The notes below the pieces were generated by a model. The model had not been told where the DNA came from. It saw only the letters and a program-made list of their open reading frames with translations, and made no database searches. The translations under genes and the position numbers were made by a program. A stretch of 64,000 bases of DNA, from positions 32,001 to 96,000 of IMG/VR virus record IMGVR_UViG_3300049988_000286, one strand, 5' to 3'. Position 1 is the stretch's first letter. The number at the start of each line of letters is the position of its first letter. Of the stretch, positions 4,486 to 25,696 are shown in pieces. The stretch is from a virus. Taxonomy: Duplodnaviria > Caudoviricetes.

Positions 4486-4658
4486 GAAGGCATGACCTAT
4501 ACCCAAACCGCTCCCGGTGGCGCGACGCGCGTTTTCGAGACCTTCATCGACGATGCGGGCTCGACGTGGCTGATCATCATCGAGGGGGAGGATCGGCATG
4601 AAATGTGCCTCAAGCCCAGCGATGTCATGGGTCTGGGGCGTATCTTGGGATTTGGGCG

Positions 4659-5144
4659 ATGAAGCCCCTCTGGCTTTATCGCCCGCTCCTCAACATTCGC
4701 CCGGTGCTGGAATTTGCGCAACGCGTTGGCGTCACCAAAGTGATGCCGCCCGAGCATCTTCATGCCACGCTCGCGACCGTCCGTCCCCCGTGCGACTGGG
4801 ATGACCTCGCACTCGAAACCGACGAGATCATCATCCCGGCGGGGATGAAGAAAATCCAGATTTTCGGCTTCCACGCCAAGGGACTGACCTTCGGCCACGA
4901 GCGGTTCTCCTCTCGCCATGCCGAGTTGGCGCGCCTCTACCCTGCGATGGATCACGCCTCGTTGCTGCGTCCCCACGTCACCCTCTACCGTGGGGGCAAG
5001 ATGCCGCGCGGAGATGTCGGCTACGAGGGTGAACTTGTTTTCGGTCCCGAGATCGCCGTTGAATTCGATGAGGTAGAAGCGCGTGGCATCAAGCACGTCA
5101 AACTCGCCGATTACCTTAATGCACGCGAGGACGCCTCGGTGTAG
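4659..5144 (+). CDS. 2H phosphoesterase, Acb1/T4 gp57B-like (anti-CBASS candidate)
   Basis: two HxT motifs (LHATL, PHVTL), P-x-D-W, and C-terminal G-E-L-V-F-G-P-E. Confidence 0.7.
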   Translation: MKPLWLYRPLLNIRPVLEFAQRVGVTKVMPPEHLHATLATVRPPCDWDDLALETDEIIIPAGMKKIQIFGFHAKGLTFGHERFSSRHAELARLYPAMDHASLLRPHVTLYRGGKMPRGDVGYEGELVFGPEIAVEFDEVEARGIKHVKLADYLNAREDASV

Positions 5145-6491: not shown

Positions 6492-7121
6492 ATGTTCGGA
6501 CAGTATCGCTCCCTTACCGTCAAAGAGGGACTCGGCTGGCTCAAGACTGGTGCCCCTTCACGCGAGACGATGCTCCTGCCGCACCCCACGGACTATTTCG
6601 ATCTCGACTTTGAGGAGCACGCATCCCGCTACAGGATGCGGGGTAGCTGGGTCCATACCTTGAGTTTCGCCATCCCCTGCCTTGAAGCGATGGAGTGCCT
6701 GAAGGCGCGTTCCGTTGTCGAGGTCGGCGCTGGGACTGGCTACTGGTCGTCCCTCATTGCCCTGCATGGCGGGGATATCATCGCGACCGATATCGAGACA
6801 GGCATATCAGGTTACCGGCACCACATCGGGGCCTTTCATGGTGTGGAGCAACTCTCCGCCACCGAAGCCGCTACCCGCTACCCGGATCGTGATGTCCTTA
6901 CCGTGTGGCCCAATTACGACGAGTCGTGGGCCTATGAGATGGCGTGCACGATTGAGGGAGATCGTCTGCTACATTACGTGGGTGAGGGTTACGGAGGCTG
7001 CACCGCCGACGATGATTTTCACACGCTGATGTCGCGAGAGTTCGATCAGATATCAGAGGTTGCAATTCCGCAGTGGGAGGGTATTCACGATTATCTGACC
7101 ACCTATCGGCGGAAGCGCTGA
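6492..7121 (+). CDS. class I SAM-dependent methyltransferase-like protein
   Basis: VVEVGAGTGYW motif I; GEGYGGCTADDDF. Confidence 0.7.
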   Translation: MFGQYRSLTVKEGLGWLKTGAPSRETMLLPHPTDYFDLDFEEHASRYRMRGSWVHTLSFAIPCLEAMECLKARSVVEVGAGTGYWSSLIALHGGDIIATDIETGISGYRHHIGAFHGVEQLSATEAATRYPDRDVLTVWPNYDESWAYEMACTIEGDRLLHYVGEGYGGCTADDDFHTLMSREFDQISEVAIPQWEGIHDYLTTYRRKR

Positions 7122-7123
7122 AC

Positions 7124-7199
7124 GGTCCCGAAGCTCAACTGGATGAGCGGCCGAATCCTAGTCGGAAGGTTGCGGGTTCGAGTCCCGCCGGGACCGCCA
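7124..7199 (+). tRNA. tRNA-Arg(CCT)
   Basis: cloverleaf GGTCCCG/CGGGACC, loop ATCCTAG, GTTCGAGTC, encoded CCA. Confidence 0.9.
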
Positions 7200-7349
7200 A
7201 CACGGAGAAGCATGTGGCGACGGCAACGATCACCTTGACGGTCACCGGTGACATCACCGATGTGCGCAGCCTTGAGACGCCCGCCCTCGCCGCGATGTTG
7301 GCCAAACTCCCCAATGTAGCGGAAGTGCAATGCACGGTTAGGATCGCGG

Positions 7350-7808
7350 ATGAAGATCACGAGTGAATCACCCGGAGACTTCGAATCTTCGATCGATCGC
7401 TTCTGCGAGCATCTCCTTACGCTTGAAGGGCCTCTCAAGGTCTCTGGATCGGTTCGGGTCTCTGATGGCCAAGCGACCCTCCTCGGGAGCATCGAACCCT
7501 ATCAGTCGATTCCGGGCTTTCAGTATTTCTACACCAAGGATTGGCCGTGTGGCGATCGTATCTTTGACGTGTCAGAGACGATCAACTTTCGCCTTCTCGA
7601 AGAGGGCAGGTTGGTTTGGTTCTGTATGCCCAGACAGCCACCGTGCACTCATGTCCTGACTCTCGTTTATGGCGTTTGGGCGCACAACAAAGAGCCGGTC
7701 CATAATCGCTTCGCTTTCCGGGGCAGCGACGAGGAGGCCTTTGTTCTCGCGCTCCAATACGGAGCACGCTTACAAAAGGCTTGCGACTTCTTTCGAACTG
7801 TGAGATAA
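7350..7808 (+). CDS. hypothetical protein ending in paralog-family motif
   Basis: ...FAFRGSDEEAFVLALQYG. Confidence 0.6.
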   Translation: MKITSESPGDFESSIDRFCEHLLTLEGPLKVSGSVRVSDGQATLLGSIEPYQSIPGFQYFYTKDWPCGDRIFDVSETINFRLLEEGRLVWFCMPRQPPCTHVLTLVYGVWAHNKEPVHNRFAFRGSDEEAFVLALQYGARLQKACDFFRTVR

Positions 7809-7880
7809 ACGCTTATCAGGAGAATAGGCATGAAGTACTGGATCGCCGACGCCCACTAGGTAACCTAGTGGAGAAAACCA

Positions 7881-8372
7881 ATGAACTACACCTACCCCCT
7901 CATCGCAACCTCGCGTAGCAATGAGACCCGCATCTTCCGTGATGCCGATACTTTTCTCGCATTCGCCCGTGACCGTCGCAACGGCGGCGTCGGGGCTTAC
8001 TGGCTAGAGGCTCGCGTCAACCTCTTCAGCGGGAAGAGCCCAAAGCTCTTCCGGGCCTCCGAAGGTGGTCTCTTCGATCGCTGGCGCGAGACCACTCGCA
8101 ACGAGTGGATCGTTCGCGACGATCGTGGTCGTGTTGTTGATCGCGCCGAGATCGCCGCCGCGAAGGGCGACGGTCCCCGTCGCTACTACCGCTACCGCGC
8201 GGATGTCGTCCTCGCTGCCAAGCTGGGGCTCCCCATCCCCGGCACGAGCAATCGTCGCGGTGGCAACAAGCGCTACAGCAAGAACGGGCGCAACGGCACC
8301 TACAACCGCGACAAGGGCCTGTTCCTCTTCGAGGACAACGAGATCGCTCGCGGCAACTTTACTGACCTCTGA
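7881..8372 (+). CDS. basic hypothetical protein
   Basis: GGAG SD, followed by a terminator. Confidence 0.75.
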   Translation: MNYTYPLIATSRSNETRIFRDADTFLAFARDRRNGGVGAYWLEARVNLFSGKSPKLFRASEGGLFDRWRETTRNEWIVRDDRGRVVDRAEIAAAKGDGPRRYYRYRADVVLAAKLGLPIPGTSNRRGGNKRYSKNGRNGTYNRDKGLFLFEDNEIARGNFTDL

Positions 8373-8999: not shown

Positions 9000-9097
9000 A
9001 TCGTCTCCAAGGCCTCATCGGTGAGGCAGGGGAGAAGCGCATCTGCGAGTAAGGTGTTCCCGCCTCGGAGTTGTTTTTACCTTGGGGTAACTTGCGT

Positions 9098-9589
9098 TTA
9101 CTGTGTGAGTTCTACCAAGGGATGATCGAACAACATCTCGTAATCGCCGTCATCGCGCAAATCGTAGAACACACTGGCGTCGATCTCGATGCGGACTAGG
9201 AACCGTGAGAGCGGTGCAATCCCAGTATCGGTGAGGACAAATTCCTCCGACTCTTCGCGACGACGCTCTGGATGGGCACCGTGGTGGTGCGACATGAAGT
9301 CGATCGGCACGAGGCGAAAGCGCTGTCGCAGACGCCGCTGATCGAACACGAACACGACATCCTGTCCCCACGTTCGAGCAAAATCTCGTGAGCGCGACAT
9401 GGAGACGCCGGTGACTTGCTGTCCGCCCGTCGTCTTGTCGCCACCGTGGATCATCAGGTTACGACGGGTCTGTGACGTGCGGGCATCTAGACGATCACTC
9501 TCGATGATCCGCAAAGCACTCATCGCATTGGTGCCGTGATAGAGGTAATCGGGGCGAACGCTGGCTTCGAAGAGATCGGACAGGAGCAT
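9098..9589 (-). CDS. ADP-ribosyltransferase-like late protein
   Basis: YLYHGT...GVSMSRS...ESEE pattern; ATG 4 nt after TAAATA. Confidence 0.5.
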   Translation of the reverse strand: MLLSDLFEASVRPDYLYHGTNAMSALRIIESDRLDARTSQTRRNLMIHGGDKTTGGQQVTGVSMSRSRDFARTWGQDVVFVFDQRRLRQRFRLVPIDFMSHHHGAHPERRREESEEFVLTDTGIAPLSRFLVRIEIDASVFYDLRDDGDYEMLFDHPLVELTQ

Positions 9590-9596
9590 GTCCTAT

Positions 9597-10265
9597 TTAG
9601 GACGCTTTCCGATCCACGGTGTAGAAGAGGTGGGTGGCGAACCGGACGATTGGCTTGATGCCGCGTGCCCACGAGGGGTTCACCGCTCGGGTGTGATAGA
9701 AGAGCGCTCCGCGCGTCGTGTCCTTGATGCGGCCGGTGAGCAGCCCCTTGGCGATCTTCTTGGTTTCCAGCCAGCGATCGTAGTCAAGGCTATCATGGGA
9801 GAGTTGTGCGATGTTACGCATCTGGTTGCGGCCGGGATCGCTCTCGTTCCAGCATGAGAAGGCGTAGGGCTTGAGCAACACGGCCGACAGCGTTGAGCCG
9901 AAATTGCGCGATGATGCCAGCCGGTTCAATGCGACATTTCCCACGGCAGTCATTCCCTTCCGACCCGTCGAGCGTCCCTCGCACCACATCGTAAGACGCA
10001 AGAGGCGCTCCTCCGCCGCAGTGTAGCGCGTCTTGAGCGCCACCACCTTGGCCGCGAGGGGCTTCTTGGCGCGCGGCTTTCTCGGCGTCGTCTCCGGGAT
10101 GATCTGGGTGACCGCCCGGCCCAAATACACCGGCACAGGCTTCTCGCGCGGTGCCGCCTCGGTGCGATACGCCATCACGGCGAGACCCAACATATACACG
10201 GCGACGGCGGCTTCGGATTTGCTCAACAACATACGGCCTCTCAATATATCGAACTGCTTAACCAT
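9597..10265 (-). CDS. SleB-family cell wall hydrolase
   Basis: MWCEGRS...AVGNVALNR...GALFYH...W...HLFY. Confidence 0.85.
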   Translation of the reverse strand: MVKQFDILRGRMLLSKSEAAVAVYMLGLAVMAYRTEAAPREKPVPVYLGRAVTQIIPETTPRKPRAKKPLAAKVVALKTRYTAAEERLLRLTMWCEGRSTGRKGMTAVGNVALNRLASSRNFGSTLSAVLLKPYAFSCWNESDPGRNQMRNIAQLSHDSLDYDRWLETKKIAKGLLTGRIKDTTRGALFYHTRAVNPSWARGIKPIVRFATHLFYTVDRKAS

Positions 10266-10318
10266 AGTTCGTTCGGTATTGCAAGCTGTGGTTGATAAAG
10301 GGTTAACCGTGTAAATAG

Positions 10319-10783
10319 GTGATGGTCTTCGACATCATCATGGGCTGGCTGATCGCCGATGCGTTGAGCGGCCTCCTCCACTACGTCCTCGATCATTTCG
10401 GGACCGCCGATACTAACGCGACAGCGAGCATCAGCGACGGTCCCCAGAAGATCAACCAGAGGAGGGCAACCATCCAAACCGCCAGCCATGTGTTGATGTG
10501 GCGAGCAAGGAAACCCCATTGTGTGAAGGCGAGCGGGCGATCGTGATGCTCACGGGCGAACCGTATCGCTCTCTTTCCCACAATCGGAGTTGGCGGCATG
10601 GTCTCCCCCTCTGTGCATTATTGGGCTCATTGCCCCCGCTACGCGCCCCGGTGGGCACGATGGCTCCAACGCTGGGGCGTCTTCCAATCGCCGCGCGGTC
10701 ACGCCCGTCACCATCGCCCTCCCTACACGGCTCATTACTGCGTGCTCACCGACTGGTTGAATCGATTATTGACCCGAAACTAA
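10319..10783 (+). pseudogene. CarF/TMEM189-family lipid desaturase disrupted by an internal 179-bp inversion (10412-10590)
   Basis: plus strand ADALSGLLHYVLDHFG...; minus strand TPIVG...REHHDRP...; plus strand HYWAH...HARHH...HYC; flipping the middle restores one 154-aa ORF. Confidence 0.85.
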
Positions 10784-10802
10784 CCGGGGTCTACACTCCC
10801 GC

Positions 10803-11456
10803 ATGTTTCTCAAATTCCTCGATCTTTCCCTCGCTAGCCGTGTTTTTGTGGTTGGTGATATCCACGGTGAGTTCACCATTTTGGATGACCGCCTCGCCGA
10901 TCTCAAATTTGATTATGAGCGCGATCGACTGTTGAGCGTCGGCGATCTCGTTGATCGCGGACCCGAGTCGGAACGGGCGATCGAATACGCGGTGCAGCCG
11001 TGGTTCGATCATGTTCGTGGCAACCACGAGGAATTGTGCGAAGGCGCGCTGCGCGGCGACATGTGGCAGATGCATCGCAAGAATGGCGGCATGTGGTTCG
11101 ACCTGTTGAGCGATGACGATCGCCGGGAGCATTCCCGCATCCTTAACAATGCTCCCGTGGCTATCGAGGCGCTACTTCCGAGTGGACGGCGGATTGGCGT
11201 TGTTCACGCCGATATTCCGACCAATGACTGGGACGATATGCGCAACCTCGCGCCCGAGATGGAGCGGAGTTGGACGCGCTGGTGCATGTGGAACCGTGAT
11301 CGTCTCTCGAACCCACCCCTAGATGGTATTCGGAATATCGATCACGTCTACTTCGGCCATACCCCGAAGAAGAGCGTCTATCGGGTAGGCAACACATCGT
11401 GGATCGACACGGGCGCTTTCGCTACAAAGAACTTGACGGTGCTCGAAATCAAATAA
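10803..11456 (+). CDS. Ser/Thr protein phosphatase (PrpA/NinI-like metallophosphoesterase)
   Basis: GDIHG, GDLVDRG, RGNHE, FGHTP, IDTG. Confidence 0.9.
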   Translation: MFLKFLDLSLASRVFVVGDIHGEFTILDDRLADLKFDYERDRLLSVGDLVDRGPESERAIEYAVQPWFDHVRGNHEELCEGALRGDMWQMHRKNGGMWFDLLSDDDRREHSRILNNAPVAIEALLPSGRRIGVVHADIPTNDWDDMRNLAPEMERSWTRWCMWNRDRLSNPPLDGIRNIDHVYFGHTPKKSVYRVGNTSWIDTGAFATKNLTVLEIK

Positions 11457-15531: not shown

Positions 15532-16344
15532 ATGAGCAAGATGTTCCCAACCGCGAGCGAGCGGACGACTCGTCGGGCTGCCCTGTATAAGCGCCTCGAC
15601 GCCTTTCTGGATAATCATGTCCCCAGCGATGGCGGCTACGCGCCCGCGACAGATGAGGATGTTCAGTTCATGCAAGGCGTCTTCGAGGAGATCGCCGATT
15701 TGAAGTTCGGCCGCGATCCGGATGGTGATCAGGTGCTCGGCACCGTGGCGTGGAATCGGCGACGCGGACGGATGGAAACCTTCTTCTTCCCGCACGATCC
15801 CAGCGAGCGAACGCTCGGTCGCGAGCCCACGCCGCTCGATCAGATCACGCACGAGAACCAGATGGCGCGCGCCACTGGGTTCATGGCATCGGTTCTCCAT
15901 CGTCATCTCGACCGGATCAGCATGGAGAGTGATATGCGCCGTGATGCTGCCATGAAGGTGGTCGATGGTGAAACCTTTGTGGAGGCATATCGCGTAACGC
16001 TCGCCCGTGATCCCATCGCTGCCGAGAAGATGCTCGATGACGAGATGGCGAAGCGCACTCCCCTGTTCGACAAACGCGGACCCATCCACAACATGATGCG
16101 CGAGGAATTTGGCGCGGTCATGGTCGAAGAGACTCGCGTCGCCGGGATGGCGATCGATCACGTCCTGTCAATGCTCGCCACGGCTCACGTCACGGATCGC
16201 CAGATCGAGAAGGAGGTAGCAGATACCATCATGCCCGCCTTGGCGCGCTTCGGAAAAGCAACCTTCAAGGATCAGGTAGAGCGCTGGAACTCCCTCTACA
16301 ACGAACGGCGACGCGCCCGGATGCTATTGACTACCGCGTCGTAA
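15532..16344 (+). CDS. hypothetical protein
   Basis: GGAG SD, TTGACC upstream. Confidence 0.75.
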   Translation: MSKMFPTASERTTRRAALYKRLDAFLDNHVPSDGGYAPATDEDVQFMQGVFEEIADLKFGRDPDGDQVLGTVAWNRRRGRMETFFFPHDPSERTLGREPTPLDQITHENQMARATGFMASVLHRHLDRISMESDMRRDAAMKVVDGETFVEAYRVTLARDPIAAEKMLDDEMAKRTPLFDKRGPIHNMMREEFGAVMVEETRVAGMAIDHVLSMLATAHVTDRQIEKEVADTIMPALARFGKATFKDQVERWNSLYNERRRARMLLTTAS

Positions 16345-16380
16345 ACCATTATCGAACTCTGATTATCAAAGGAACACTGT

Positions 16381-16686
16381 ATGGCGACTGCACTCAAGGC
16401 TGTGAAACCAACCGCTATCGCGTCGGCGATCCAGACCATCACCTCGATGCGTGACACGATCGCGGAGGCGCTTCCCAACGCCGAAGTGACTGCCAGCTTG
16501 AACGAGCGCGGCAACTTCACCGTGACGCTGCGCTTCGTGCTCGTCGAGGATCGGGAACTCGCCATGATGAAGATGACCCACGGCCTCGTCGGCGATCTCT
16601 CCTTCGCCGATATCTCGGCTGTTGCTGATCAGAAGAACGCACCCGGCAAGGGGCGGCTGCTCGTCAACGCTTCGGTGCTCGGGTGA
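16381..16686 (+). CDS. hypothetical protein
   Basis: AAGGA SD. Confidence 0.7.
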   Translation: MATALKAVKPTAIASAIQTITSMRDTIAEALPNAEVTASLNERGNFTVTLRFVLVEDRELAMMKMTHGLVGDLSFADISAVADQKNAPGKGRLLVNASVLG

Positions 16687-17102
16687 GCGAACCGTTCGAG
16701 ATCATCAACGAAACCGCCTCCATGATGGAAGGTCTCCGGAACGGAGAACCGATCACCAAGGAGGCGGCAGGGGTGTTGCTGGACAAAATCGCGACGCTTC
16801 GCAGCTACACCTTCAAGGCTGTCCGTATGGACTTCTACAACGAACTCCGTGATGCCGCCGACGTGGGCTTCGTCAAGCTAGTCGAAGTCCGCGATGGCCT
16901 CAATCAACTCCATGCCGACCTCCAGCAATACCCGGAGCGGGATAGTCGCAAGATCGAGAAAGCCAGTTTCGCGGCGGTACTCGGTGACGACATTGAGTTG
17001 TCGCGTGACGACATCGCGATGCTCAAGCGGCGGTATGACGATCGTATCGAGCGTCTGGCACTCGCTCTCAATGAGGGGCTGCATAAACCGCGTTACTCCT
17101 GA
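16683..17102 (+). CDS. hypothetical protein
   Basis: coupled ORF. Confidence 0.7.
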   Translation: MSEPFEIINETASMMEGLRNGEPITKEAAGVLLDKIATLRSYTFKAVRMDFYNELRDAADVGFVKLVEVRDGLNQLHADLQQYPERDSRKIEKASFAAVLGDDIELSRDDIAMLKRRYDDRIERLALALNEGLHKPRYS

Positions 17103-18130
17103 ACCGGCCGGAAGGCATTGTCGTGGAGGTTGGCGAACCGTTCCGGTCCGAGGGCAGCCTTAGTGGCCGTGAGTGTGTCGGGATGCATCCAGTCCCGTGA
17201 CGCCACAGCGATCTTGAGCGCGCAATCGTCGGTGGTCCATAGGCGATGGAACAACCCCTGTTCGGTGGCGGGGGTGCTGCCGACGATCAGATAAGGCGGT
17301 GTGATCATGATGCTGCTACCGGCATGGTAATGGCTTGATCGACCAGCGCTGCGTTCGATCATGTCATCGTGATCAAATGGCGCGATGACTTCCTTGCGCG
17401 TCACCGCATGGATGTAAGCCAATAGTCGGCTCTCAATCGAGAACGGGATGTGGGCGGCATTGTCGATCAGGATGTAGTCGTAATACTCGCCCACGAAGGC
17501 GGCATTGGACAACGCCTCGAAGGTCATGACCTTCACCGACGCATCGTCAATCTCCTTGGCGAGGTGAGTGACGAGGCGGTAATTGCTCGTCACCAGCAAG
17601 ACGTGTTTGCCCTGTGCGGCACGCTCGCGCGCGAACGCTATCATGAATGTCGTGAGACCAGCGCCGCGCGACGAATTGATCACCACATCGTTGCTACGCG
17701 CCGCCTCGGCGATCTTGATCCACAGCGGGCGCAGATGATCGTCTTCGGTCAGGCGGGGGCCGGTGATGCGGTAGCGCTCAACGAGGAAGTCTGACGGGTT
17801 GAAGCCATCAGAGAAAACCGGTGTCACTGCGCCTTCGAGCGCCTCTGGGACGATCGCTGCCGCCATATCGCGAAGCTGCTCCTCAAGGTGCACATGAACG
17901 CTCTCATCGGGGACGATGCCCGCAAGATTGGCGATCTCCTCCACCTCTTCGGAATGCTCTGGCAATTCAATGTCGCTGACCGGCGTGAGGGCAGTGGTGG
18001 TATTGGCGCGCGTTGCGACAGAATCACCGAGGAGGTAAGCCTCGACGATCGCGGCCTTGGCCATCATATCTTCGAAATTATAGGCAAAACCGCGCGCAGC
18101 CTCGATGGCTTGTAGGCGTGTATCAATCAT
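17093..18130 (-). CDS. degenerate terminase large-subunit ATPase-like protein
   Basis: SRGAGLTT (Walker A-like, no Lys), YILIDNAAHI (Walker B-like), GSTP...FHRLW, LGPERF. Confidence 0.5.
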   Translation of the reverse strand: MIDTRLQAIEAARGFAYNFEDMMAKAAIVEAYLLGDSVATRANTTTALTPVSDIELPEHSEEVEEIANLAGIVPDESVHVHLEEQLRDMAAAIVPEALEGAVTPVFSDGFNPSDFLVERYRITGPRLTEDDHLRPLWIKIAEAARSNDVVINSSRGAGLTTFMIAFARERAAQGKHVLLVTSNYRLVTHLAKEIDDASVKVMTFEALSNAAFVGEYYDYILIDNAAHIPFSIESRLLAYIHAVTRKEVIAPFDHDDMIERSAGRSSHYHAGSSIMITPPYLIVGSTPATEQGLFHRLWTTDDCALKIAVASRDWMHPDTLTATKAALGPERFANLHDNAFRPVQE

Positions 18131-18203: not shown

Positions 18204-18794
18204 ATGTTGAATTTAGAGCACATGATGGAGCGATATGGAATAAAACTATTGGTGCTCTATCGTCGTTGCCATAATGGATATAATCGTGACCAGAACAGAA
18301 TAGCGATCTTCGAGTTTAGCGACTGGCGAGACATAGAGCGGCTCATCATGTGCGCCGACTACCCCTTCAAGCGGGGAGGGACTATCCTGAAGAGGATGAT
18401 TGGTGACGTTGATCGTGTCGGTCTCTTCCATACCAGCACGATTGATTACCTTTATGAGCGCTCGGCAAGTGTTGCCCCCGTCGAGTTCACGGTGTCATAT
18501 ACCTTGGTCAACCGCAGCTATATCGCGCGTGAGTATGACAACGTGATGATGTTGTTGGAGGGAGCATCGAAGGGTCAACAGAGCGGACGGCTCGCGCTGA
18601 TCACCAATAAGGATATGGCTGATGAACTCGATTGGCTCGGCGATTGGACTATCTGGATAAGCCCATCCTTCACCGCTGTAATCAAACTTTGGCCCTATCG
18701 TCGCATCGACGATCACGAACTCACGCTCTTTCGACTGCGCTGGGGACATTTGCTCCTTGCCCCGATGGAGAGTTCGAGTTACGCTGCGGTATGA
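18204..18794 (+). CDS. hypothetical protein ending in paralog-family motif
   Basis: DDHELTLFRLRWG. Confidence 0.65.
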   Translation: MLNLEHMMERYGIKLLVLYRRCHNGYNRDQNRIAIFEFSDWRDIERLIMCADYPFKRGGTILKRMIGDVDRVGLFHTSTIDYLYERSASVAPVEFTVSYTLVNRSYIAREYDNVMMLLEGASKGQQSGRLALITNKDMADELDWLGDWTIWISPSFTAVIKLWPYRRIDDHELTLFRLRWGHLLLAPMESSSYAAV

Positions 18795-19420
18795 ACCAAT
18801 TTCAAAAGCGCAAAGTCATCCTCCAGACTCTCCTTCAAGGGGAGGGCTACTATGATGCCTTGGCGGTGATGCACTACTGTGAACCTCACCACGCGGGAAC
18901 GCGCAAAGACGGGTTCACGCCCGAGTACTCCCACCAGATCAACATCGCGACCTTCGCCCTCGATCTTCCCGATCTCATGTATCGGCAGGACGTGATCGCA
19001 ACGATCTTCGGCCACGACACCAGCGAGGATGCTGGCCGGAAGTGGACGAAGATCGCCCGGCGGGTTCGTCGCTCCAAGAAGGCGCGCAAGCGTGTCGCTC
19101 GGGCGATCAAGAACATGACCAAGGAGTGGAAGGGTCAGCGCATCCCAGACGCTGATCTCTTCGCCAAGATGGCCCGCGATCCCGTCGCGTCGATCGCCAA
19201 GGGCTGCGACCGCATCCATAACCTGTCTTCGATGGTTGGTGTGTTCACGCCCGCGAAGCAGCGCGAATACATCCGGGAAGTCAGGGAGTTGTTCCTGCCG
19301 ATGCTCAAGCTGGCGCGGCGGCGCTTCCCCCATCAGGCGCGCGCCTACGAGATGATCAAGTTCGTCCTCATCTCGCAGATCACCCTGATCGAATCCGCCC
19401 TCAATGGAGCAGAGGCATGA
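18791..19420 (+). CDS. HD-domain hydrolase, RelA/SpoT (p)ppGpp-hydrolase-like
   Basis: H..TRKDG..PEYSH...GHDTSED...K.CDRIHN. Confidence 0.8.
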   Translation: MNQFQKRKVILQTLLQGEGYYDALAVMHYCEPHHAGTRKDGFTPEYSHQINIATFALDLPDLMYRQDVIATIFGHDTSEDAGRKWTKIARRVRRSKKARKRVARAIKNMTKEWKGQRIPDADLFAKMARDPVASIAKGCDRIHNLSSMVGVFTPAKQREYIREVRELFLPMLKLARRRFPHQARAYEMIKFVLISQITLIESALNGAEA

Positions 19421-19623
19421 ACGACCTTTTGGACAACAAAGAGCCCACGGTGTCGGCTCACGATCTCGCGCGCGAGCATACGCGGCGATGGCGCGACGCT
19501 GGGGAGATGATCGCCGCCGTGGCCTTCTCCGCTATGGCGCTGGGCGGTCTTCATTATCATGTCGAGTATGCGGGATGGCTGATCTTCTTGTCGGTCATCA
19601 TCGTGTGGCGACGAGTCGCATGA
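19417..19623 (+). CDS. small membrane protein
   Basis: two hydrophobic segments. Confidence 0.6.
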   Translation: MNDLLDNKEPTVSAHDLAREHTRRWRDAGEMIAAVAFSAMALGGLHYHVEYAGWLIFLSVIIVWRRVA

Positions 19624-20087
19624 AGGCGCTCCTGACCGAAATCATCTGGTTCGAAGGCCCCGCCCTGATCGCGTGCGATCATCGCTGCGACAAGGCGTGG
19701 GGGATGAATGGTCGCCTCGCGACAATCGGTAGCTATGCTCCTGCACAGATTCAGCTATCCGACGATGATGACGACCACGTTAACCTTGCCGATGCGGAGG
19801 TGGGCATAGCCCCGGAGGACACAGGCTGGTCCGAAGGACCGGACGGCAAGCCGTGGTTCCCGGAACGACACAATCGCTGGTGTGCCCGAGAGTGCGAACG
19901 CTCCTCGATCATCGATCCCGGTGATGCAGTGAAGATAACCGATTATCGGCAGAGGGTGTTCAACATACCGCATCTCCACGATGCCGAGAATGCCGTGATC
20001 GATTTCGGGTTCTCATTCCAGCCGAGCGGTCAAAAACACGCATCATTCATCGAGATAGATGTTGACACCTCGGAGACCATCAAGTAA
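19620..20087 (+). CDS. hypothetical protein
   Basis: coupled; ACDHRCDKAWG, WCARECER. Confidence 0.7.
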   Translation: MKALLTEIIWFEGPALIACDHRCDKAWGMNGRLATIGSYAPAQIQLSDDDDDHVNLADAEVGIAPEDTGWSEGPDGKPWFPERHNRWCARECERSSIIDPGDAVKITDYRQRVFNIPHLHDAENAVIDFGFSFQPSGQKHASFIEIDVDTSETIK

Positions 20088-20103
20088 ACCGATGATGTCT
20101 TGA

Positions 20104-20177
20104 CGCGAGGTGGTGAGATTAGTCCGTCCGGTTGCAAGCCGGGAGTAAGCTGGTGAAAGCCCCGGCCCCCGCGACCA
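20104..20177 (+). tRNA. degenerate tRNA-like gene, GCA anticodon
   Basis: CGCGAGG/CCCCGCG-A-CCA, TCCGG-TTGCAAG-CCGGG, T-loop TGAAAGCC, weak D-arm. Confidence 0.5.
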
Positions 20178-20185
20178 AGACATGT

Positions 20186-20262
20186 AGCGCTGTGTCCAGA
20201 GTGGTTATGGACTCTCCCCGCAAGGGAGAGATACGTGGGTTCGATTCCTCCCAGCGCTGCCA
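20186..20262 (+). tRNA. tRNA, GCA anticodon (Cys), atypical C33 and G73
   Basis: AGCGCTG/CAGCGCT-G-CCA; TCTCC-CCGCAAG-GGAGA. Confidence 0.7.
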
Positions 20263-20273
20263 ATCTATTTTGA

Positions 20274-20364
20274 GTGTCGGTGGCGGAGTCCGGCCGAACG
20301 CACAAGACTGCAAATCTTGCGAGGGCTTCCCTCCACGCCGGTTCAAATCCGGCCCGATGCTCCA
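20274..20364 (+). tRNA. tRNA-Cys(GCA) with long variable arm
   Basis: CAAGA-CTGCAAA-TCTTG, GAGGG-CTT-CCCTC V-arm, U73, CCA. Confidence 0.85.
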
Positions 20365-20374
20365 TAAATAGAAG

Positions 20375-20926
20375 ATGCGAGACATCATCGCGCTGATCGA
20401 AAGCGCTACCCTTCCGTTCAATCTCAACGACCAATTTGTGGCCAAAGTGCAAGCATACTTGCACGAGCATCTCGGTGATTGGGCCGATGATTTCCCTGAT
20501 CTCAAGCTGGCGATTATGCAAGCGTGGCAGTTGATCCACGATGAAGGCGTGCCAGACAATGGTGTGATCGAGGTTTATCGCGAGGAACTTCGTCCAAGTG
20601 AGCAGATCGCCAACCACAACTACGGCACCCTCGGTGCTTGCTGGTCGTGGGATGCCAATGGGGCGGGAACATGCCACCATGAAAACGCATATGACGAGCA
20701 CGGCCGGGAAAATGTCGAGGCCATTGTGTTCATCGGCGAGGTCTCGCTCTCCGATGTCGAATGGGTTCAGACCATCGCGAAGAATCTCGTGCTCAAGAAC
20801 GAGCGCGAGATCAACATCCGGGACGGCGCACGGGTGAGGCTTGAGGGTCAGTATAAGGCTGGCGCTCGGGGCTACGAACCGCTAGCCGATCAGGTATATC
20901 AAATCAGCAATATCAACGACTTCTAA
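20375..20926 (+). CDS. ADP-ribosyltransferase-like late protein
   Basis: MRDIIALIES; VYR...LGACWSW...NERE; 4 nt after TAAATA. Confidence 0.45.
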   Translation: MRDIIALIESATLPFNLNDQFVAKVQAYLHEHLGDWADDFPDLKLAIMQAWQLIHDEGVPDNGVIEVYREELRPSEQIANHNYGTLGACWSWDANGAGTCHHENAYDEHGRENVEAIVFIGEVSLSDVEWVQTIAKNLVLKNEREINIRDGARVRLEGQYKAGARGYEPLADQVYQISNINDF

Positions 20927-20927
20927 C

Positions 20928-20953
20928 GGAACGAACTCTCCTTGCCGTAAGTT
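20928..20953 (+). promoter_or_regulatory. possible EcfG/SigT (general stress) promoter
   Basis: GGAAC-N17-AGTT directly upstream of the LOV kinase. Confidence 0.35.
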
Positions 20954-20980
20954 AGATGGTCTGCTACCGGGGTAGAAATT

Positions 20981-22570
20981 TTGCGGGATTCGCGAGTGCC
21001 TGATAATCGGAACATCGACAGCCGTGGTAACTTGGATCACACGGAAGCGCAAGGCTTCGATAGCGATCACAGCGACATCTTCTATGCGGCAATCCAGCGT
21101 TCGCGGATGCCGATGATCCTCACCGATCCTAATCGTCCAGACAACCCGATCGTGTTTTTCAACACGGCCTTCTCGACGCTCACTGGATACCCCCCGGAGG
21201 AAATCCTAAATCGCAACTGTCGCTTCCTGCAAGGGGAGGAGACGGATCGCGATAAGGTCGCCTATGTGGGTCAACAGATTCTCGCGGAGAAGGACTGCTC
21301 GGTAGAGTTGCTCAACTACCGCAAGGACGGCACCTCGTTCTGGAACGCGCTCTTCATCTCGCCCGTCTATGACAATGACGGTAAGCTCGCGTATTACTTC
21401 GCATCCCAGCTTGACGTTACCCGGCGGGTGAAGAGCGAGGAGTTGCTTCGCCAGACCCAGAAGATCGAGACGCTGGGACAACTCACCGGCGGCATCGCGC
21501 ACGACTTCAACAACATGTTGACCGTGGTGATGGGCAACCTCAACATGGCGCAGAACGCCATGGAGGTGAAGCAACCCGATCGCGTATCAGTTTACCTCGA
21601 TCGCGCCATGGCGGCAGCAAAGTCGAGCGATCGTCTCACCCAGCAGCTTCTCTCCTTCGCGCGCAAGCAGCGGATGACGACGGAGCGTCTCGATCTCAAC
21701 GAGGTGGTGCGTCAGGTGCAGACGATGTTCGAGCGCGTGCTCACCACGGGCATCTACGTCTCCGCCGAACTCACCAGTGATCCGTGGATGGTTTCCCTCG
21801 ATCCCAGCCACGCACAGAGCGCTTTCCTCAACGTGCTCCTCAACGCTCGCGATGCCATCCCGGCGACCGGGGGCTCGATCAAGCTACGGACGCGTAATCG
21901 CATCGTCGATGCCGAAAATCCCTTCTACGACCTCGCAGAGGGTGCGTATGTGGAACTCTCGATCGAGGATACCGGGTCGGGCATGTCGGAGGAAACGAAG
22001 ATGCGCGTCTTCGAACCTTTCTTCACCACCAAGGGTGTGGGTAAGGGCACCGGCATGGGGCTCGCCATGGTGCATGGCTTTGCCGACCAGTCCAACGCCA
22101 CCATCATCATCGAGAGCACCGAGGGCGTGGGGACAACGATCTCCTTCATCTTCCCCACCGATGACGCTCACGCCGTAGAGAGGGACCGCCACAGCGGATC
22201 ACGCATCCTTGTCGTGGAGGACAACCAGATGCTCCGCGAGACGACGGTGGATTTCCTGCGGATGCACGGATTCACAGTGCGGGATGTCGATAGCGCCGAC
22301 AGCGCGATCAAGGCACTCGACGGCGGATACGTCCCCGACATCCTGTTCAGCGATGTCGTCATGCCGGGGACGATGGACGGCTTCGGTCTCGGCCGCGTTG
22401 TCCGTGACCGCTTCCCCAGCGTTCACGTGCTGCTCAACAGCGGGTGGACAGATGGTCGCGAGAACAACGACGAGTTCGAGGTGATGAGCAAGCCGTACGA
22501 TCTCACCAAGCTGGCAAGCGTGTTGACGCGCATGAGCGATCTCGATCGCGACAAAGCGCACGAGGGCTAG
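20981..22570 (+). CDS. LOV-domain hybrid histidine kinase (LOV-HisKA-HATPase-REC)
   Basis: NRNCRFLQG LOV motif; GGIAHDFNN H-box; NARDA, DTGSGM, FFTTK, GTGMGL; LFSDVVMPG and KPY receiver. Confidence 0.92.
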   Translation: MRDSRVPDNRNIDSRGNLDHTEAQGFDSDHSDIFYAAIQRSRMPMILTDPNRPDNPIVFFNTAFSTLTGYPPEEILNRNCRFLQGEETDRDKVAYVGQQILAEKDCSVELLNYRKDGTSFWNALFISPVYDNDGKLAYYFASQLDVTRRVKSEELLRQTQKIETLGQLTGGIAHDFNNMLTVVMGNLNMAQNAMEVKQPDRVSVYLDRAMAAAKSSDRLTQQLLSFARKQRMTTERLDLNEVVRQVQTMFERVLTTGIYVSAELTSDPWMVSLDPSHAQSAFLNVLLNARDAIPATGGSIKLRTRNRIVDAENPFYDLAEGAYVELSIEDTGSGMSEETKMRVFEPFFTTKGVGKGTGMGLAMVHGFADQSNATIIIESTEGVGTTISFIFPTDDAHAVERDRHSGSRILVVEDNQMLRETTVDFLRMHGFTVRDVDSADSAIKALDGGYVPDILFSDVVMPGTMDGFGLGRVVRDRFPSVHVLLNSGWTDGRENNDEFEVMSKPYDLTKLASVLTRMSDLDRDKAHEG

Positions 22571-22573
22571 GCG

Positions 22574-22936
22574 TTACCCGAACTTGGCGGAAAGGCGCTC
22601 GAAATCTGCGCGTTCCCGTTGTTCGCGCAGAGCGTCACGCTCCGCCTTCGCGCACGCGCGCGCGATCATCTCATCGTCGGTTTCCTCGCGGACGCCATAG
22701 ACGTAGATGTATTGTTCATCCCCGTAACCGTCACCGTGTTTGCGAAACTCGAAGGACTTATACTCGGGATAGTCTTCCTCGATGCGCGCCATATTGTCGC
22801 GGACCGAATCGAAAGAGTTCTCGACGTCGAACGACATTAGCTTGATGCTCACGACGCCGCGCGTCTCTGCGAGTTCGACGATCCTCGCCACGACTGCGCC
22901 GCGAATGTCGGCGATCTGCTGTTCGGTCAGGGGCAT
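22574..22936 (-). CDS. hypothetical protein
   Basis: GAGGAG SD; TTGACA-N16-TATCAG upstream (22955-22982). Confidence 0.75.
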   Translation of the reverse strand: MPLTEQQIADIRGAVVARIVELAETRGVVSIKLMSFDVENSFDSVRDNMARIEEDYPEYKSFEFRKHGDGYGDEQYIYVYGVREETDDEMIARACAKAERDALREQRERADFERLSAKFG

Positions 22937-22992
22937 GATGTTCTCCTCACGGCCCTGATAAACAATTACGACGAACTGTCAAGCTGGAACTA

Positions 22993-23026
22993 TTATGGCC
23001 CCTCATGTTGCCATGAGGGGCCATAA
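22993..23026 (-). terminator. 15-bp perfect hairpin closing the long non-coding region
   Basis: TTATGGCCCCTCATG-GCAA-CATGAGGGGCCATAA on the minus strand. Confidence 0.6.
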
Positions 23027-25067
23027 ATCCAGTAGCGTGAGACTATCACCACTGGTGCTTGATCGCACAGTCATTATCCCGTTGCCGAAGCGCGGGGTTC
23101 TACTGCTTGTCCTCGACCGAAGTCGCCACCAAGCGTCACCACACCAATCGTTACCCACTGGTGCCGTGGGGCATCCACAAACGATATCGGCAATCTTACG
23201 ACTACCGAACACCAGACCATGTGCTGATCTCGTGCTCCTCATTCTCCAAAGAGTGAGGAATTAGGTGACTCCCGTTCGTGGAGAACGGCTACTTCTGCAT
23301 TGCTCGCCCGCCGGTCCTATTTCGTCACCCGGAGGCGACATTCCTATAACCGTCGTGCGCGTCATCGGACGCTGCCTCTATCTCGGCTCCGACTTGCGTC
23401 GGAATACCTTCTCGCCCTCTATCAGCGGTTGCTCGCTGATCAATCCTTCGGACGACGTGGCTCCGTCACCCTCTGGACTGCCGATCCCACCCTTGTATGC
23501 CTACTCGGGCGCTTGGAGGAGCGCAGCGATGCTACACTCCGATCCGCGACTCGCGTCGCTGATTGACCGACTACTGGTTGACCGACTTGTGGGCGTATAA
23601 AGCGACAAGGAGCGGATGCTTATCCCCGACTTCCACTGACCTGTTTCTCCCGCGAGCGGGCATCGAGCCAGTGATTACTTCCCTTGTATCTACGCCGTCG
23701 AGGTCTGTTCCCCCTGACTTGCGTCAACAGAAACTCCCTCACGGGTGGTCCCAGCTTGCATAGATGAACCCCTGTGGCGTGACCCACACAGGCCCAAGGC
23801 TATGACCCCTGCCTTGGCTTACCAGCGGTTACCCGCTCGTTGCTCATTAGACTGCGCTACACCGCAGTATCGCGATCAAGCATCACCTGATCTCCACCCA
23901 ACACTTGCCGGGCTTCACAGACCTTGCGAGAGGCTGATTGCGGATTTTCCAGAGATACCGGCGAGATGGACACGATCCTAGAACCGCATCAGACAATTCG
24001 CCGGTATCCCTGCGGAACCGACTTTCATCGATCCCGATCTTTCAAGCACGGTTTGAGCGCTCCCGCGAAGGCGCGTTCGGACTTCCTCAACCGCGAGGTA
24101 TTGGAAGGCTTGGCAGTTTTCACCGCCGTTCACCGTGCTTGTGGTATCCGAGTAAACCCGGAGACCAAATTTCCGGAGAGGATTTTGCTACCGCAGCCCC
24201 GCAAAGGATTACAGCAGAATCGGCCTCTCCGTGGACCGGACCGAAGTCCTGCCCAAGATTTCAGGAGTTCTCATCTCAACTTCGGCGATGAAGGCATGGT
24301 GACCCGGCCATCGTCCTCGGTAGTAAGTCACTCCTGCGGTCCCGACCGAAGTCTGAACCGATTTTCCAAGGAGCCGCCTCGGTCATCCTGCGCTACATCG
24401 TATGACCGATATCCGCTCTGGCTGTCCTGCGCACTCCTTGTGGTAGATGTTCTCAACCTAAGTCTCGATCACCACCAATCTCGTGAGCGTTTGTTCCGCT
24501 CTGGAACCCTGATACTCAAACCCGAGGGTGAGCGTCAAGAAGTTTTTTCGAAGGGGATGACCAACCGAAGTTGATCATCCCGCTTCTGGATCAAGGCCTA
24601 GACCTCAACCCGTCTTTCGAGGTTGGTTTAGCGACACCGCCGTTTTCACGGCTGTGATCCAACCTCGCGGCGACAAGGGGTGAACCCAACGAACCACCCT
24701 TGCAACCGAACTTCCGGAGGGGACGGGGAGGTGAGCGTGCTTTTCAGCATATTCTCCGCCTTCCGGGCGAGGGTCGGCGGACCCCTCCGTGGCGCGACGC
24801 CGAAGCATCGTTGCCGTTTTCCGAGGATGACCAGCATGATACCGAAGTATCTTACCCGCCATCCTCGCGGTCAGGGATTTTCGACTCTGCTCGAAAGCAT
24901 CATCTACGGTCCCTTGACCGATCTCGTAAACTGATTGCCCCGAAGGGCTGTCAAAGAGCAGTATCGACCGAGGCCTATACTTCGGAAGCATCTCGGTAGT
25001 GAGTCATTCAACTCTCTACTTCAATCTAGGTTCCGCCGTTTGTCTTCGGCAGCGCCTCGTTTCCGTT
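22993..25067 (-). ncRNA. candidate giant structured non-coding RNA (or RNA cluster), ~2.1 kb
   Basis: no credible CDS; at least 8 C(UUCG)G and several GNRA hairpins on the minus strand; bounded by promoter and terminal hairpin. Confidence 0.7.
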
Positions 25068-25073
25068 GATCCG

Positions 25074-25103
25074 TCTATAGGGGTGAGGCTTTCGACCTGT
25101 CCA
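25074..25103 (-). promoter_or_regulatory. sigma70-like promoter facing the non-coding region
   Basis: A-rich upstream, TGGACA-N18-TATAGA on the minus strand. Confidence 0.5.
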
Positions 25104-25228
25104 GCACTTTTTTCACAGCCGTGCATTTTTTTCGTCATCACCCTATCGCGCAATCGAACTTCGGTGTTGCGATCCAGACGTGTAATTGATACCCTCGGGG
25201 TTGAAATCTTTTGGAGAACCAAACTCAA

Positions 25229-25696
25229 ATGAAGAAACATCTGTTCGGCGCGGTGCTGGCAAGTATCGCGCTCGTTCTTCCCGCCACGGCGCAGCCTTTG
25301 ACTCGCGAGCAACTCGGCTACCGCGTCGGCGTCACCCAAGTCGTCGATGGCGATACCCTGACCCTCGATGCACGATCGTGGTCCCCCTTCCCCAACCTCT
25401 CGTGGAAGGTACGCGTGCGCGGGATCGACACGCCGGAGAAGCGCAGCCAGTGCGTGGCGGAGCGTGAGGCAGCGGTTCGGGCAACCCGATACACCAAGAC
25501 CTTGATCGAGCGTGCGGGCAATCAGGTTTACATTCAGGAACCTCGTCATGACAAATATGGCGGACGTTTCCTCGGCGTGATCATTCTCCCCAATGGGGTC
25601 TCGCTCGCCGACACATTGATTCGCAGCGGTTACGCCCGCCCCTATAACGGCGGACAGCGCCGTCCGTGGTGCGTGTTCGGTCAGTATCGTCCATAA
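25229..25696 (+). CDS. thermonuclease (SNase) family protein with signal peptide
   Basis: VVDGDT, RVRGIDTPE, DKYGGRFLG, GYARPY. Confidence 0.9.
   Translation: MKKHLFGAVLASIALVLPATAQPLTREQLGYRVGVTQVVDGDTLTLDARSWSPFPNLSWKVRVRGIDTPEKRSQCVAEREAAVRATRYTKTLIERAGNQVYIQEPRHDKYGGRFLGVIILPNGVSLADTLIRSGYARPYNGGQRRPWCVFGQYRP

Follow-up and report, generated by a model that had tools for sequence, protein, structure and literature searches.

A predicted LOV hybrid histidine kinase carried by two lineages of megaphages

Introduction

A gene for a predicted LOV hybrid histidine kinase is carried by a T4-like megaphage. It lies at positions 20981–22570 of a 64,000-nucleotide stretch (the window), which comprises bases 32001–96000 of the 499,572-bp IMG/VR virus record IMGVR_UViG_3300049988_000286. 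The kinase gene is truly phage-borne, and its product is probably a soluble blue-light photoreceptor kinase, long carried in a lineage of T4-like megaphages whose hosts live on leaf surfaces. The strongest evidence is that the kinase has been kept in two megaphage lineages. While the protein itself is an ordinary member of its family, its carrier and its history are new: a phage-only clade distributed over two lineages of megaphages.

Domain organization of the kinase

The gene is a single intact open reading frame (ORF) on the plus strand, encoding 529 amino acids without an internal stop (LOV-HisKA-HATPase_c-REC). It starts with TTG at 20981, or alternatively with GTG at 20996, and ends with TAG at 22568–22570. 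Both candidate start codons are preceded by a Shine-Dalgarno-like run of the GGGG/GGGA type. A preliminary description of this DNA had the kinase start at 20928, which is out of frame and falls in a 54-nt spacer (20927–20980, plus strand). The spacer is intergenic because the upstream ORF finishes at 20926.

All of the Pfam matches of the kinase exceed the gathering scores. PAS_9 covers residues 48–147 (71.5 bits), HisKA (PF00512) residues 165–230 (33.8 bits against a cut-off of 26.9), HATPase_c residues 274–393 (64.9 bits against 26.4) and Response_reg residues 409–491 (44.7 bits against 30.2), while neither HWE_HK nor HisKA_2 matches the kinase in Pfam at E ≤ 0.01. The predicted LOV domain (residues 32–150; 21074–21430, plus strand as are the following parts) consists of an N-cap helix (33–40) and a PAS core, with the adduct-forming Cys80 at 21218–21220. 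It is followed by a Jα/coiled-coil linker that runs unbroken into the DHp (HisKA) domain (21419–21670), where the phospho-accepting His174 is encoded at 21500–21502. The catalytic ATP-binding domain (residues 235–393; 21683–22159) has the N, G1, F and G2 boxes, and the receiver domain (residues 408–520; 22202–22540) has the phospho-accepting Asp458 at 22352–22354. The kinase boxes can be read from the sequence as His174 in the H-box, Asn288 in the N-box, DTGSG (330–334) in G1, Phe347 in the F-box and GTGMG (356–360) in G2, and the receiver residues as the acidic pair Glu413–Asp414, Asp458, Ser487 and Lys504. In a phmmer search of the PDB, the DHp-CA structure of CckA (5idj) matches the kinase core at 5.8e-38. 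Assignment of the protein as a complete LOV hybrid histidine kinase is thus supported at the level of sequence. Apart from its start site, the kinase had been described correctly: the LOV domain with its photoactive Cys in NRNCRFLQG, the complete HisKA/HATPase pair and the receiver with its Asp are all present. The nearest PDB relatives of the LOV domain are all blue-light LOV proteins.

LOV domain and signaling helix

The N-R-N-C-R-F-L-Q-G motif with Cys80 does not vary among the 65 aligned homologues or among the phage copies. Searched against the PDB with phmmer, the kinase matches YF1 (a YtvA-LOV/FixL fusion) at 3.8e-40, the LOV domain of Brucella LOV-HK at 1e-34 to 3e-36, and the LOV domains of aureochrome and phototropin at about 1e-27. 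In YtvA, the polar contacts of the flavin are Arg63, Gln66, Arg79, Asn94, Asn104 and Gln123, with Arg79 touching the flavin phosphate. The HMMER alignment to YF1 keeps the YtvA numbering with an offset of 18, later 20, and Arg81, Gln84, Asn112, Asn122 and Gln143 are the equivalents of YtvA Arg63, Gln66, Asn94, Asn104 and Gln123. These five are all present, and they are invariant among the phage copies.

An AlphaFold2 model built from the 65-sequence alignment has a mean pLDDT of 83, with values above 90 in the LOV core. In this model, an unbroken helix (147–195) is predicted to connect the LOV core with DHp, followed by a second helix (199–228). The best Foldseek matches of the model are the full-length LOV kinases YF1 (4gcz; 2.6e-27) and SB2F1. 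Between the modeled LOV core and the Brucella LOV domain, the rmsd is 1.2 Å over 120 residues (TM 0.93, 48% identity). The spacing from Gln143 to His174 is 31 residues in 64 of the 65 homologues, and there are no insertions or deletions from the LOV core to the H box. In engineered LOV kinases, the sign of the light response depends on the register of the signaling helix, and this register would therefore be unchanged in the phage protein.

Phage identity of the record and contiguity of the gene

The record encodes a T4 Gp23 major capsid protein (243 bits) and a T4 portal protein (311 bits), two families without a match in any of 14 bacterial and archaeal genomes used as controls. It also has 42 tRNA genes, a permuted tmRNA and a gyrase B/topoisomerase II-like protein. 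That the kinase is located in the middle of phage genes, as the preliminary description had it, agrees with the presence of this capsid and portal. As a caveat, the record is classed as linear, and terminal repeats are absent (CheckV/IMG-VR).

Contigs of four public runs were placed on positions 18500–24500 of the window. In an independent assembly of the probable source sample, a leaf metagenome, a 25.5-kb contig ends at 21340 and a 30.5-kb contig starts at 21488, both with 0 differences and with depths of 47 and 51, respectively. The sole break (21340–21488) falls where the most conserved LOV and H-box motifs are encoded, and an exact contig of 191 bp closes it. The summed depth rises to about 2000 in this region because many bacterial kinases share these words. 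Two contigs from a different study (X2), at 20945–21508 and 22451–22780, span both gene boundaries with 98–99% identity, and a phyllosphere metagenome of 2018 (X3) covers 22390–22712. The matching contigs come from leaf and phyllosphere samples. The codon usage of the kinase gene is typical of the genome (56th percentile), with a GC content at third codon positions (GC3) of 0.79 against a genome 90th percentile of 0.765. A host chimera is very unlikely because the contigs are exact and of equal depth, independent samples cover the junctions, and the codon usage is ordinary. The junction check proposed earlier, made here with contigs in place of reads, thus covers both boundaries with no sign of a chimera. 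Near-identical DNA was absent from the GenBank phage collection, where tblastn gave only partial matches, in bacterial contigs or unannotated fragments.

Orthologues, phylogeny and selection

A search for homologues of the protein covered 5.8 billion clustered proteins. Its top five matches are metagenomic proteins without a name: four full-length ones with 60–71% identity and a 385-residue fragment with 92% identity. The named matches are all bacterial and at most 49% identical; they include proteins of Luteibacter and of Methylobacterium, Brevundimonas, Xanthomonas, Pseudomonas and Variovorax, the latter five aligning over the full length at 45–49% identity.

The phage-borne orthologues fall into two lineages. 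Lineage A includes contigs L002, L003 and L004, in which the kinase is 60–71% identical and 11–20 ORFs each match the present genome (38–82%). These contigs contain short ORFs without a family and genes for aminoacyl-tRNA synthetases, NADAR, Tpt1 and DEDDh, and their sequences mark them as relatives of the present phage. Lineage B, the sister group of lineage A in the tree, includes L086, L087 and L088 (contigs of 151 kb, 48 kb and 6 kb) and L116, with 46–49% identity in the kinase. Its contigs are of the huge-phage type, having several synthetases and up to nine tRNAs, and the synthetase genes that they have in common with the present genome are 48–70% identical. L116 is a 416,714-bp IMG/VR record, 90% complete, with a capsid protein 67% identical. 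A scan of IMG/VR with the single kinase protein gave no matches, and L116 was found by an alignment-based scan. A further LOV hybrid kinase, P0109 (phage C), is encoded on a third phage-type contig, L089 (266 kb, GC 64%; locus 6790–7886), together with phage replication and DNA-transfer genes. A permuted tmRNA and three tRNA genes come immediately before this kinase, and the genes around it are those of phage DNA transfer, a helicase, RNase H and a methylase.

In the more careful of two trees, built by maximum likelihood from 43 sequences (LG+G4), lineages A and B group together in a single clade with a support of 100/99, and in a quick tree under a site-mixture model with an SH-aLRT of 96. 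P0109 joins this clade at 94/89, with no bacterial sequence inside. Both trees agree on the phage clade, and comparison with bacterial LOV histidine kinases, which the preliminary description had called for, places the phage sequences apart from the bacterial homologues. The nearest named bacteria by tree path are Brevundimonas and other Caulobacteraceae. Some ‘viral’ matches from isolate genomes in IMG/VR nest within Pseudomonas and Roseomonas in the tree; these are probably bacterial genes in or beside miscalled prophage regions. Lineage A has motifs of its own, N-x-N-I-D ... G-F-x-S-D-H at the N-terminus and H-E-G at the C-terminus.

Within the phage clade, the ratio of nonsynonymous to synonymous substitution rates (dN/dS) is 0.17–0.24 for the whole kinase gene, with 0.10–0.13 for LOV, 0.04–0.17 for DHp and 0.2–0.4 for the receiver, all of these values being approximate since dS is 1.2–1.8 and thus near saturation. 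The kinase gene is thus subject to purifying selection within the clade.

Proposed function and alternatives

A chain of events is proposed by analogy with the LOV-HK of Pseudomonas syringae, YF1 and other LOV kinases, since the layout and the linker spacing are the same as those of the P. syringae type. The LOV domain would bind flavin inside the infected cell, and blue light would cause formation of an adduct between Cys80 and the flavin. The signal would travel along the helix 147–195 to DHp to alter autophosphorylation of His174, and the phosphate would then pass from His174 to Asp458 of the kinase's own receiver. As the phage has neither an Hpt nor a DNA-binding regulator of its own, host relay proteins, a lone receiver or protein–protein contacts of the receiver would be needed thereafter. 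The output route, which has less support than the foregoing steps, might involve phosphorelay proteins of the host or the single-domain receiver of the phage.

Leaf bacteria use light as an anticipatory cue, P. syringae mainly via its bacteriophytochrome (PMC10515139). The adaptive sense that we favor for the phage kinase is timing, in that light on the leaf predicts ultraviolet (UV) radiation and rapid drying. It is conceivable, as a tentative extension, that T4-like megaphages of leaf-surface Alphaproteobacteria sense daylight via their own kinase and schedule infection, for example by delaying lysis or re-programming the host under UV and drying.

Several points weigh against a light-sensing role. 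Gly97 (21269–21271) stands at the position of YtvA Arg79, where 60 of the 65 family members have Arg, so that affinity for or type of the cofactor may differ; in particular, the change may reduce affinity for the flavin phosphate. This position is variable in lineage A alone (G, K, R, G, R), Arg being retained by lineage B and two lineage-A members. The kinase gene is absent from five large records with 63–70% identical capsids, one of them complete at 382 kb, so that the family of phages can do without it. No RNA run containing the kinase gene is listed. In a metatranscriptome (X4), the kinase is hit by pieces of 47–59 nt at conserved motifs, which speak neither for nor against expression and probably derive from other organisms. 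The near-saturation of dS weakens the selection estimates. Even the P. syringae LOV-HK is classed as an orphan, no downstream partner of it being known (PMC3684834). Finally, the step in which the kinase might couple host physiology or infection timing to day and night on the leaf has less support than the photochemical steps.

Among the alternatives, the kinase might act with light playing little or no part, as a mimic of a LOV-type hybrid kinase of the host that switches off or seizes a host phosphorelay by dephosphorylation, by serving as a phosphate sink or by competition. A phage protein, PIT4, targets a two-component system of its host (PMC10714779), and the kinase of the relatives is located directly behind an anti-defense gene, Acb1. 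Gly97, at a near-invariant Arg position that varies in lineage A alone, perhaps weakens the flavin site. In addition, lineage A has a long stem branch (0.85–1.09 changes per site) and 22 fixed changes at positions conserved in bacteria. However, a sensor that does not sense would be expected to decay or vanish, whereas LOV is under the strongest constraint of any part of the protein (dN/dS as above), Cys80 and the five flavin-contact residues are invariant in the phage copies, and the Arg is still found in lineage B and in two members of lineage A. Light-independent hijacking is thus considered unlikely.

Less probable still is sensing of redox or oxygen, in which the LOV flavin would report the redox or metabolic state and the kinase would tune infection to the energy of the host. 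The name LOV refers to light, oxygen or voltage, and PAS domains that bind flavin can be responsive to redox state. The second sensor kinase of the phage (GAF-HWE) would also fit a general sensing of the intracellular state. On the other hand, the adduct Cys and the full NCRFLQG, which do not vary here, occur specifically in photoactive LOV domains, the nearest solved and characterized relatives are all blue-light sensors, and the phage contigs come from light-exposed habitats, the leaf and the phyllosphere.

A passenger or an artefact (a recent functionless capture from a host, an assembly chimera or a megaplasmid record) is largely refuted and highly improbable. In its favor, the record is linear without terminal repeats, GC3 is above the genome 90th percentile, short-read contigs break within the gene, and the isolate-genome ‘viral’ matches are probably bacterial. 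Against it, the record has a T4 capsid and portal, the junctions lie within long exact contigs of equal depth and are covered in independent samples, nine orthologues in phage context form one clade without a bacterial member (best bacterial identity 49%), and dN is far below dS.

Blue-light sensing remains the favored function of the kinase. Retained in two diverged lineages and missing from close capsid relatives, the kinase gene has the distribution of an adaptation to ecology, probably that of the leaf surface with its joint cycles of light, UV and water availability (PMC10515139).

Other signaling genes and the host

Neither an Hpt domain nor a further HisKA-type kinase was found in the phage genome. 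A predicted kinase of 398 amino acids with GAF and HWE_HK domains is encoded at genome positions 16026–17222, 36 kb upstream of the LOV kinase and outside the window, and overlaps a gene for a single-domain receiver of 117 amino acids (17217–17570). A permuted, two-piece tmRNA precedes this pair within G000:C1 15556–17570 (L005 1557–3570). Homologues of the GAF-HWE kinase occur on phage-type contigs with 51–64% identity; one of 53% identity shares a 340-kb contig with a lineage-A LOV kinase. The nearest named bacteria for the GAF-HWE kinase are Caulobacter. The HWE kinase, the permuted tmRNA and the affinity of both kinases to Caulobacterales, three traits characteristic of Alphaproteobacteria, together give a weak but consistent hint of a host among that class.

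L116 encodes a second hybrid kinase (PAS-HisKA-HATPase_c-REC, 685 amino acids, 9085–11142) without the LOV motif, past the GOLLD RNA described below and 1.5 kb from the LOV kinase. It also has a stand-alone receiver in a 162-residue open frame at about 272.4 kb. No receiver domain was found in the 382-kb relative that lacks the LOV kinase. HisKA-HATPase-REC hybrid kinases without a LOV motif are encoded on L098, L099, L126, L128, L133 and L145 (contigs of 104–358 kb). Sensor kinases may thus be commoner in huge phages than the literature suggests.

Gene neighborhood and regulatory signals

Immediately upstream of the spacer is an ORF of 183 amino acids starting with MRDIIALIE (20375–20926, plus strand), which matches no family and is not Acb1. 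Two tRNA genes with the anticodon GCA are located directly upstream (20186–20364, plus strand). Downstream, a convergent ORF of 120 amino acids without a family match (22574–22936, minus strand) has its stop 3 nt from that of the kinase, and is followed by a 2.1-kb ORF-free stretch (about 22990–25067). A 967-nt contig of the metatranscriptome X4 covers part of this stretch beside the kinase.

In lineage-A relatives, an orthologue of the anti-CBASS phosphodiesterase Acb1 precedes the LOV kinase by 24–60 nt (L002 9134–9697, L003 6512–7117 and L004 9431–9961). Acb1 was considered as a conserved direct neighbor of the kinase; this holds in L002–L004, while the ORF at 20375–20926 of the window is not homologous to Acb1. 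The Acb1 homologue of the window is found at 4605–5144 (plus strand), 16 kb upstream of the kinase. As a caveat, the kinase neighborhood thus differs among relatives. An HD_4 ORF with the hydrolase fold of the RelA/SpoT type (18632–19420, plus strand; phrog_15275 at 4e-33), 1.6 kb upstream of the kinase, may encode an alarmone hydrolase.

No sigma-70-like promoter was found in 19900–23300, and terminator-like sites there are at the chance level. The spacer before the kinase likewise has neither such a promoter nor a motif common to the upstream regions of the orthologues. When the 100 nt preceding each of four orthologues were aligned, no shared motif emerged.

In all four lineage-B contigs, a GOLLD RNA (Rfam RF02032) follows the LOV kinase on the same strand (L087 10215–10649, L088 3883–4317, L086 10208–10669 and L116 8592–9046). 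Two of the contigs score 190.5 bits, above the gathering score of 150, and the other two score 144.8 and 148.8, just below it. GOLLD has no match at E ≤ 1 (Rfam) in 22500–25300 of the window, and comparison of the window with the GOLLD regions of lineage B by blastn and nhmmer gave a 17-nt match alone.

ORFs starting with M-R-D/K-x-I-x-L-x-E include that at 20375–20926 of the window and those at 68489–68920 and 83682–84131 of the genome, and amount to 10 genome-wide under the strict pattern. Packaging of the kinase via an M-R-x-x-I-x-L-x-E tag is not proposed since the N-terminus of the kinase is M-R-D-S-R-V-P. tRNAs with the anticodon CTA (labeled Pyl by ARAGORN), two in the present genome and one at L087 17202–17277, would be of the amber-suppressor type.

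Implications

Phages are known to sense quorum signals of the host and peptides of their own. If the proposed function is true, a sensor of the physical environment would be a new kind of input for viral decision-making, and under the daylight reading the kinase would belong to the first virus-encoded photosensory two-component system, by which a virus reads an environmental cue directly. The LOV kinase, the GAF-HWE kinase with its receiver and the second PAS hybrid kinase of the 416-kb relative suggest that signaling may be an under-noticed part of huge-phage content. Optogenetics gains a natural, diverged set of LOV kinases with a constant linker register. As the protein is small and soluble and its family is easily assayed (flavin spectrum, autophosphorylation in light and dark), the idea is testable without a cultured host.

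Comparison with known systems

By sequence, the phage kinase is one of the LOV-HisKA-REC kinases known from P. syringae and Xanthomonas. The P. syringae LOV-HK binds flavin mononucleotide, autophosphorylates under blue light and transfers the phosphate to its own response regulator domain, and it requires His164 and Asp461 in vivo (PMC3684834). In Xanthomonas citri, a LOV protein with the same layout influences motility, adhesion and virulence (PMC3366940, PMC3829917). The phage kinase has the same domain order and nearly the same size, with His174 and Asp458 in place of His164 and Asp461 of P. syringae. Its 45–46% identity is to the Pseudomonas and Xanthomonas members P0049 and P0059, which are placed in the same tree, not to the experimentally studied proteins themselves. 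Like the P. syringae type, it is an orphan, having no adjacent cognate regulator or Hpt. Unlike that type, it is encoded by a phage, falls in a clade of its own that consists of phage sequences and stands on a long stem, and has Gly97 in place of Arg.

YF1 (4gcz) and SB2F1 (8a3u and others) resemble the phage kinase in the continuous coiled-coil from the LOV core to the phospho-accepting His, although they are engineered chimeras without a receiver and only 23–25% identical across the alignment. The LOV kinases of the HWE/HisKA_2 class (Caulobacter LovK, Brucella LOV-HK and Erythrobacter EL346) are tied to the general stress response (PMC4438053). Their LOV domain is similar (48% identity in Brucella), whereas the phage core is of the HisKA type with a fused receiver and gives no HWE match. 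The alphaproteobacterial stress-signaling link drawn in the preliminary description accordingly fits the HWE/HisKA_2 kinases rather than this one. The other kinase of the phage is of the HWE type, yet its sensor is GAF rather than LOV.

Full-text searches of the accessible literature retrieved no description of a phage LOV kinase and nothing relevant on phage photoreceptors or histidine kinases, in line with the earlier remark that such a photoreceptor is not typical phage cargo. A survey of 224 jumbo phages does not mention histidine kinase signaling, and refers to receiver-like domains solely outside two-component signaling (PMC7824862). Meanwhile, phrog_5982, a PHROGs family of unknown function, matches the whole kinase at 5e-119, and therefore collections of phages or prophages already contain similar kinases that have escaped notice. 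Light-related genes known from viruses include the photosynthesis genes of cyanophages and the rhodopsins of giant viruses of eukaryotes. The LOV kinase would be similar to these in being a host-derived light-dependent protein in a virus. While those proteins harvest light or conduct ions, the phage kinase would be a two-component photosensor acting in non-photosynthetic bacteria of the leaf.

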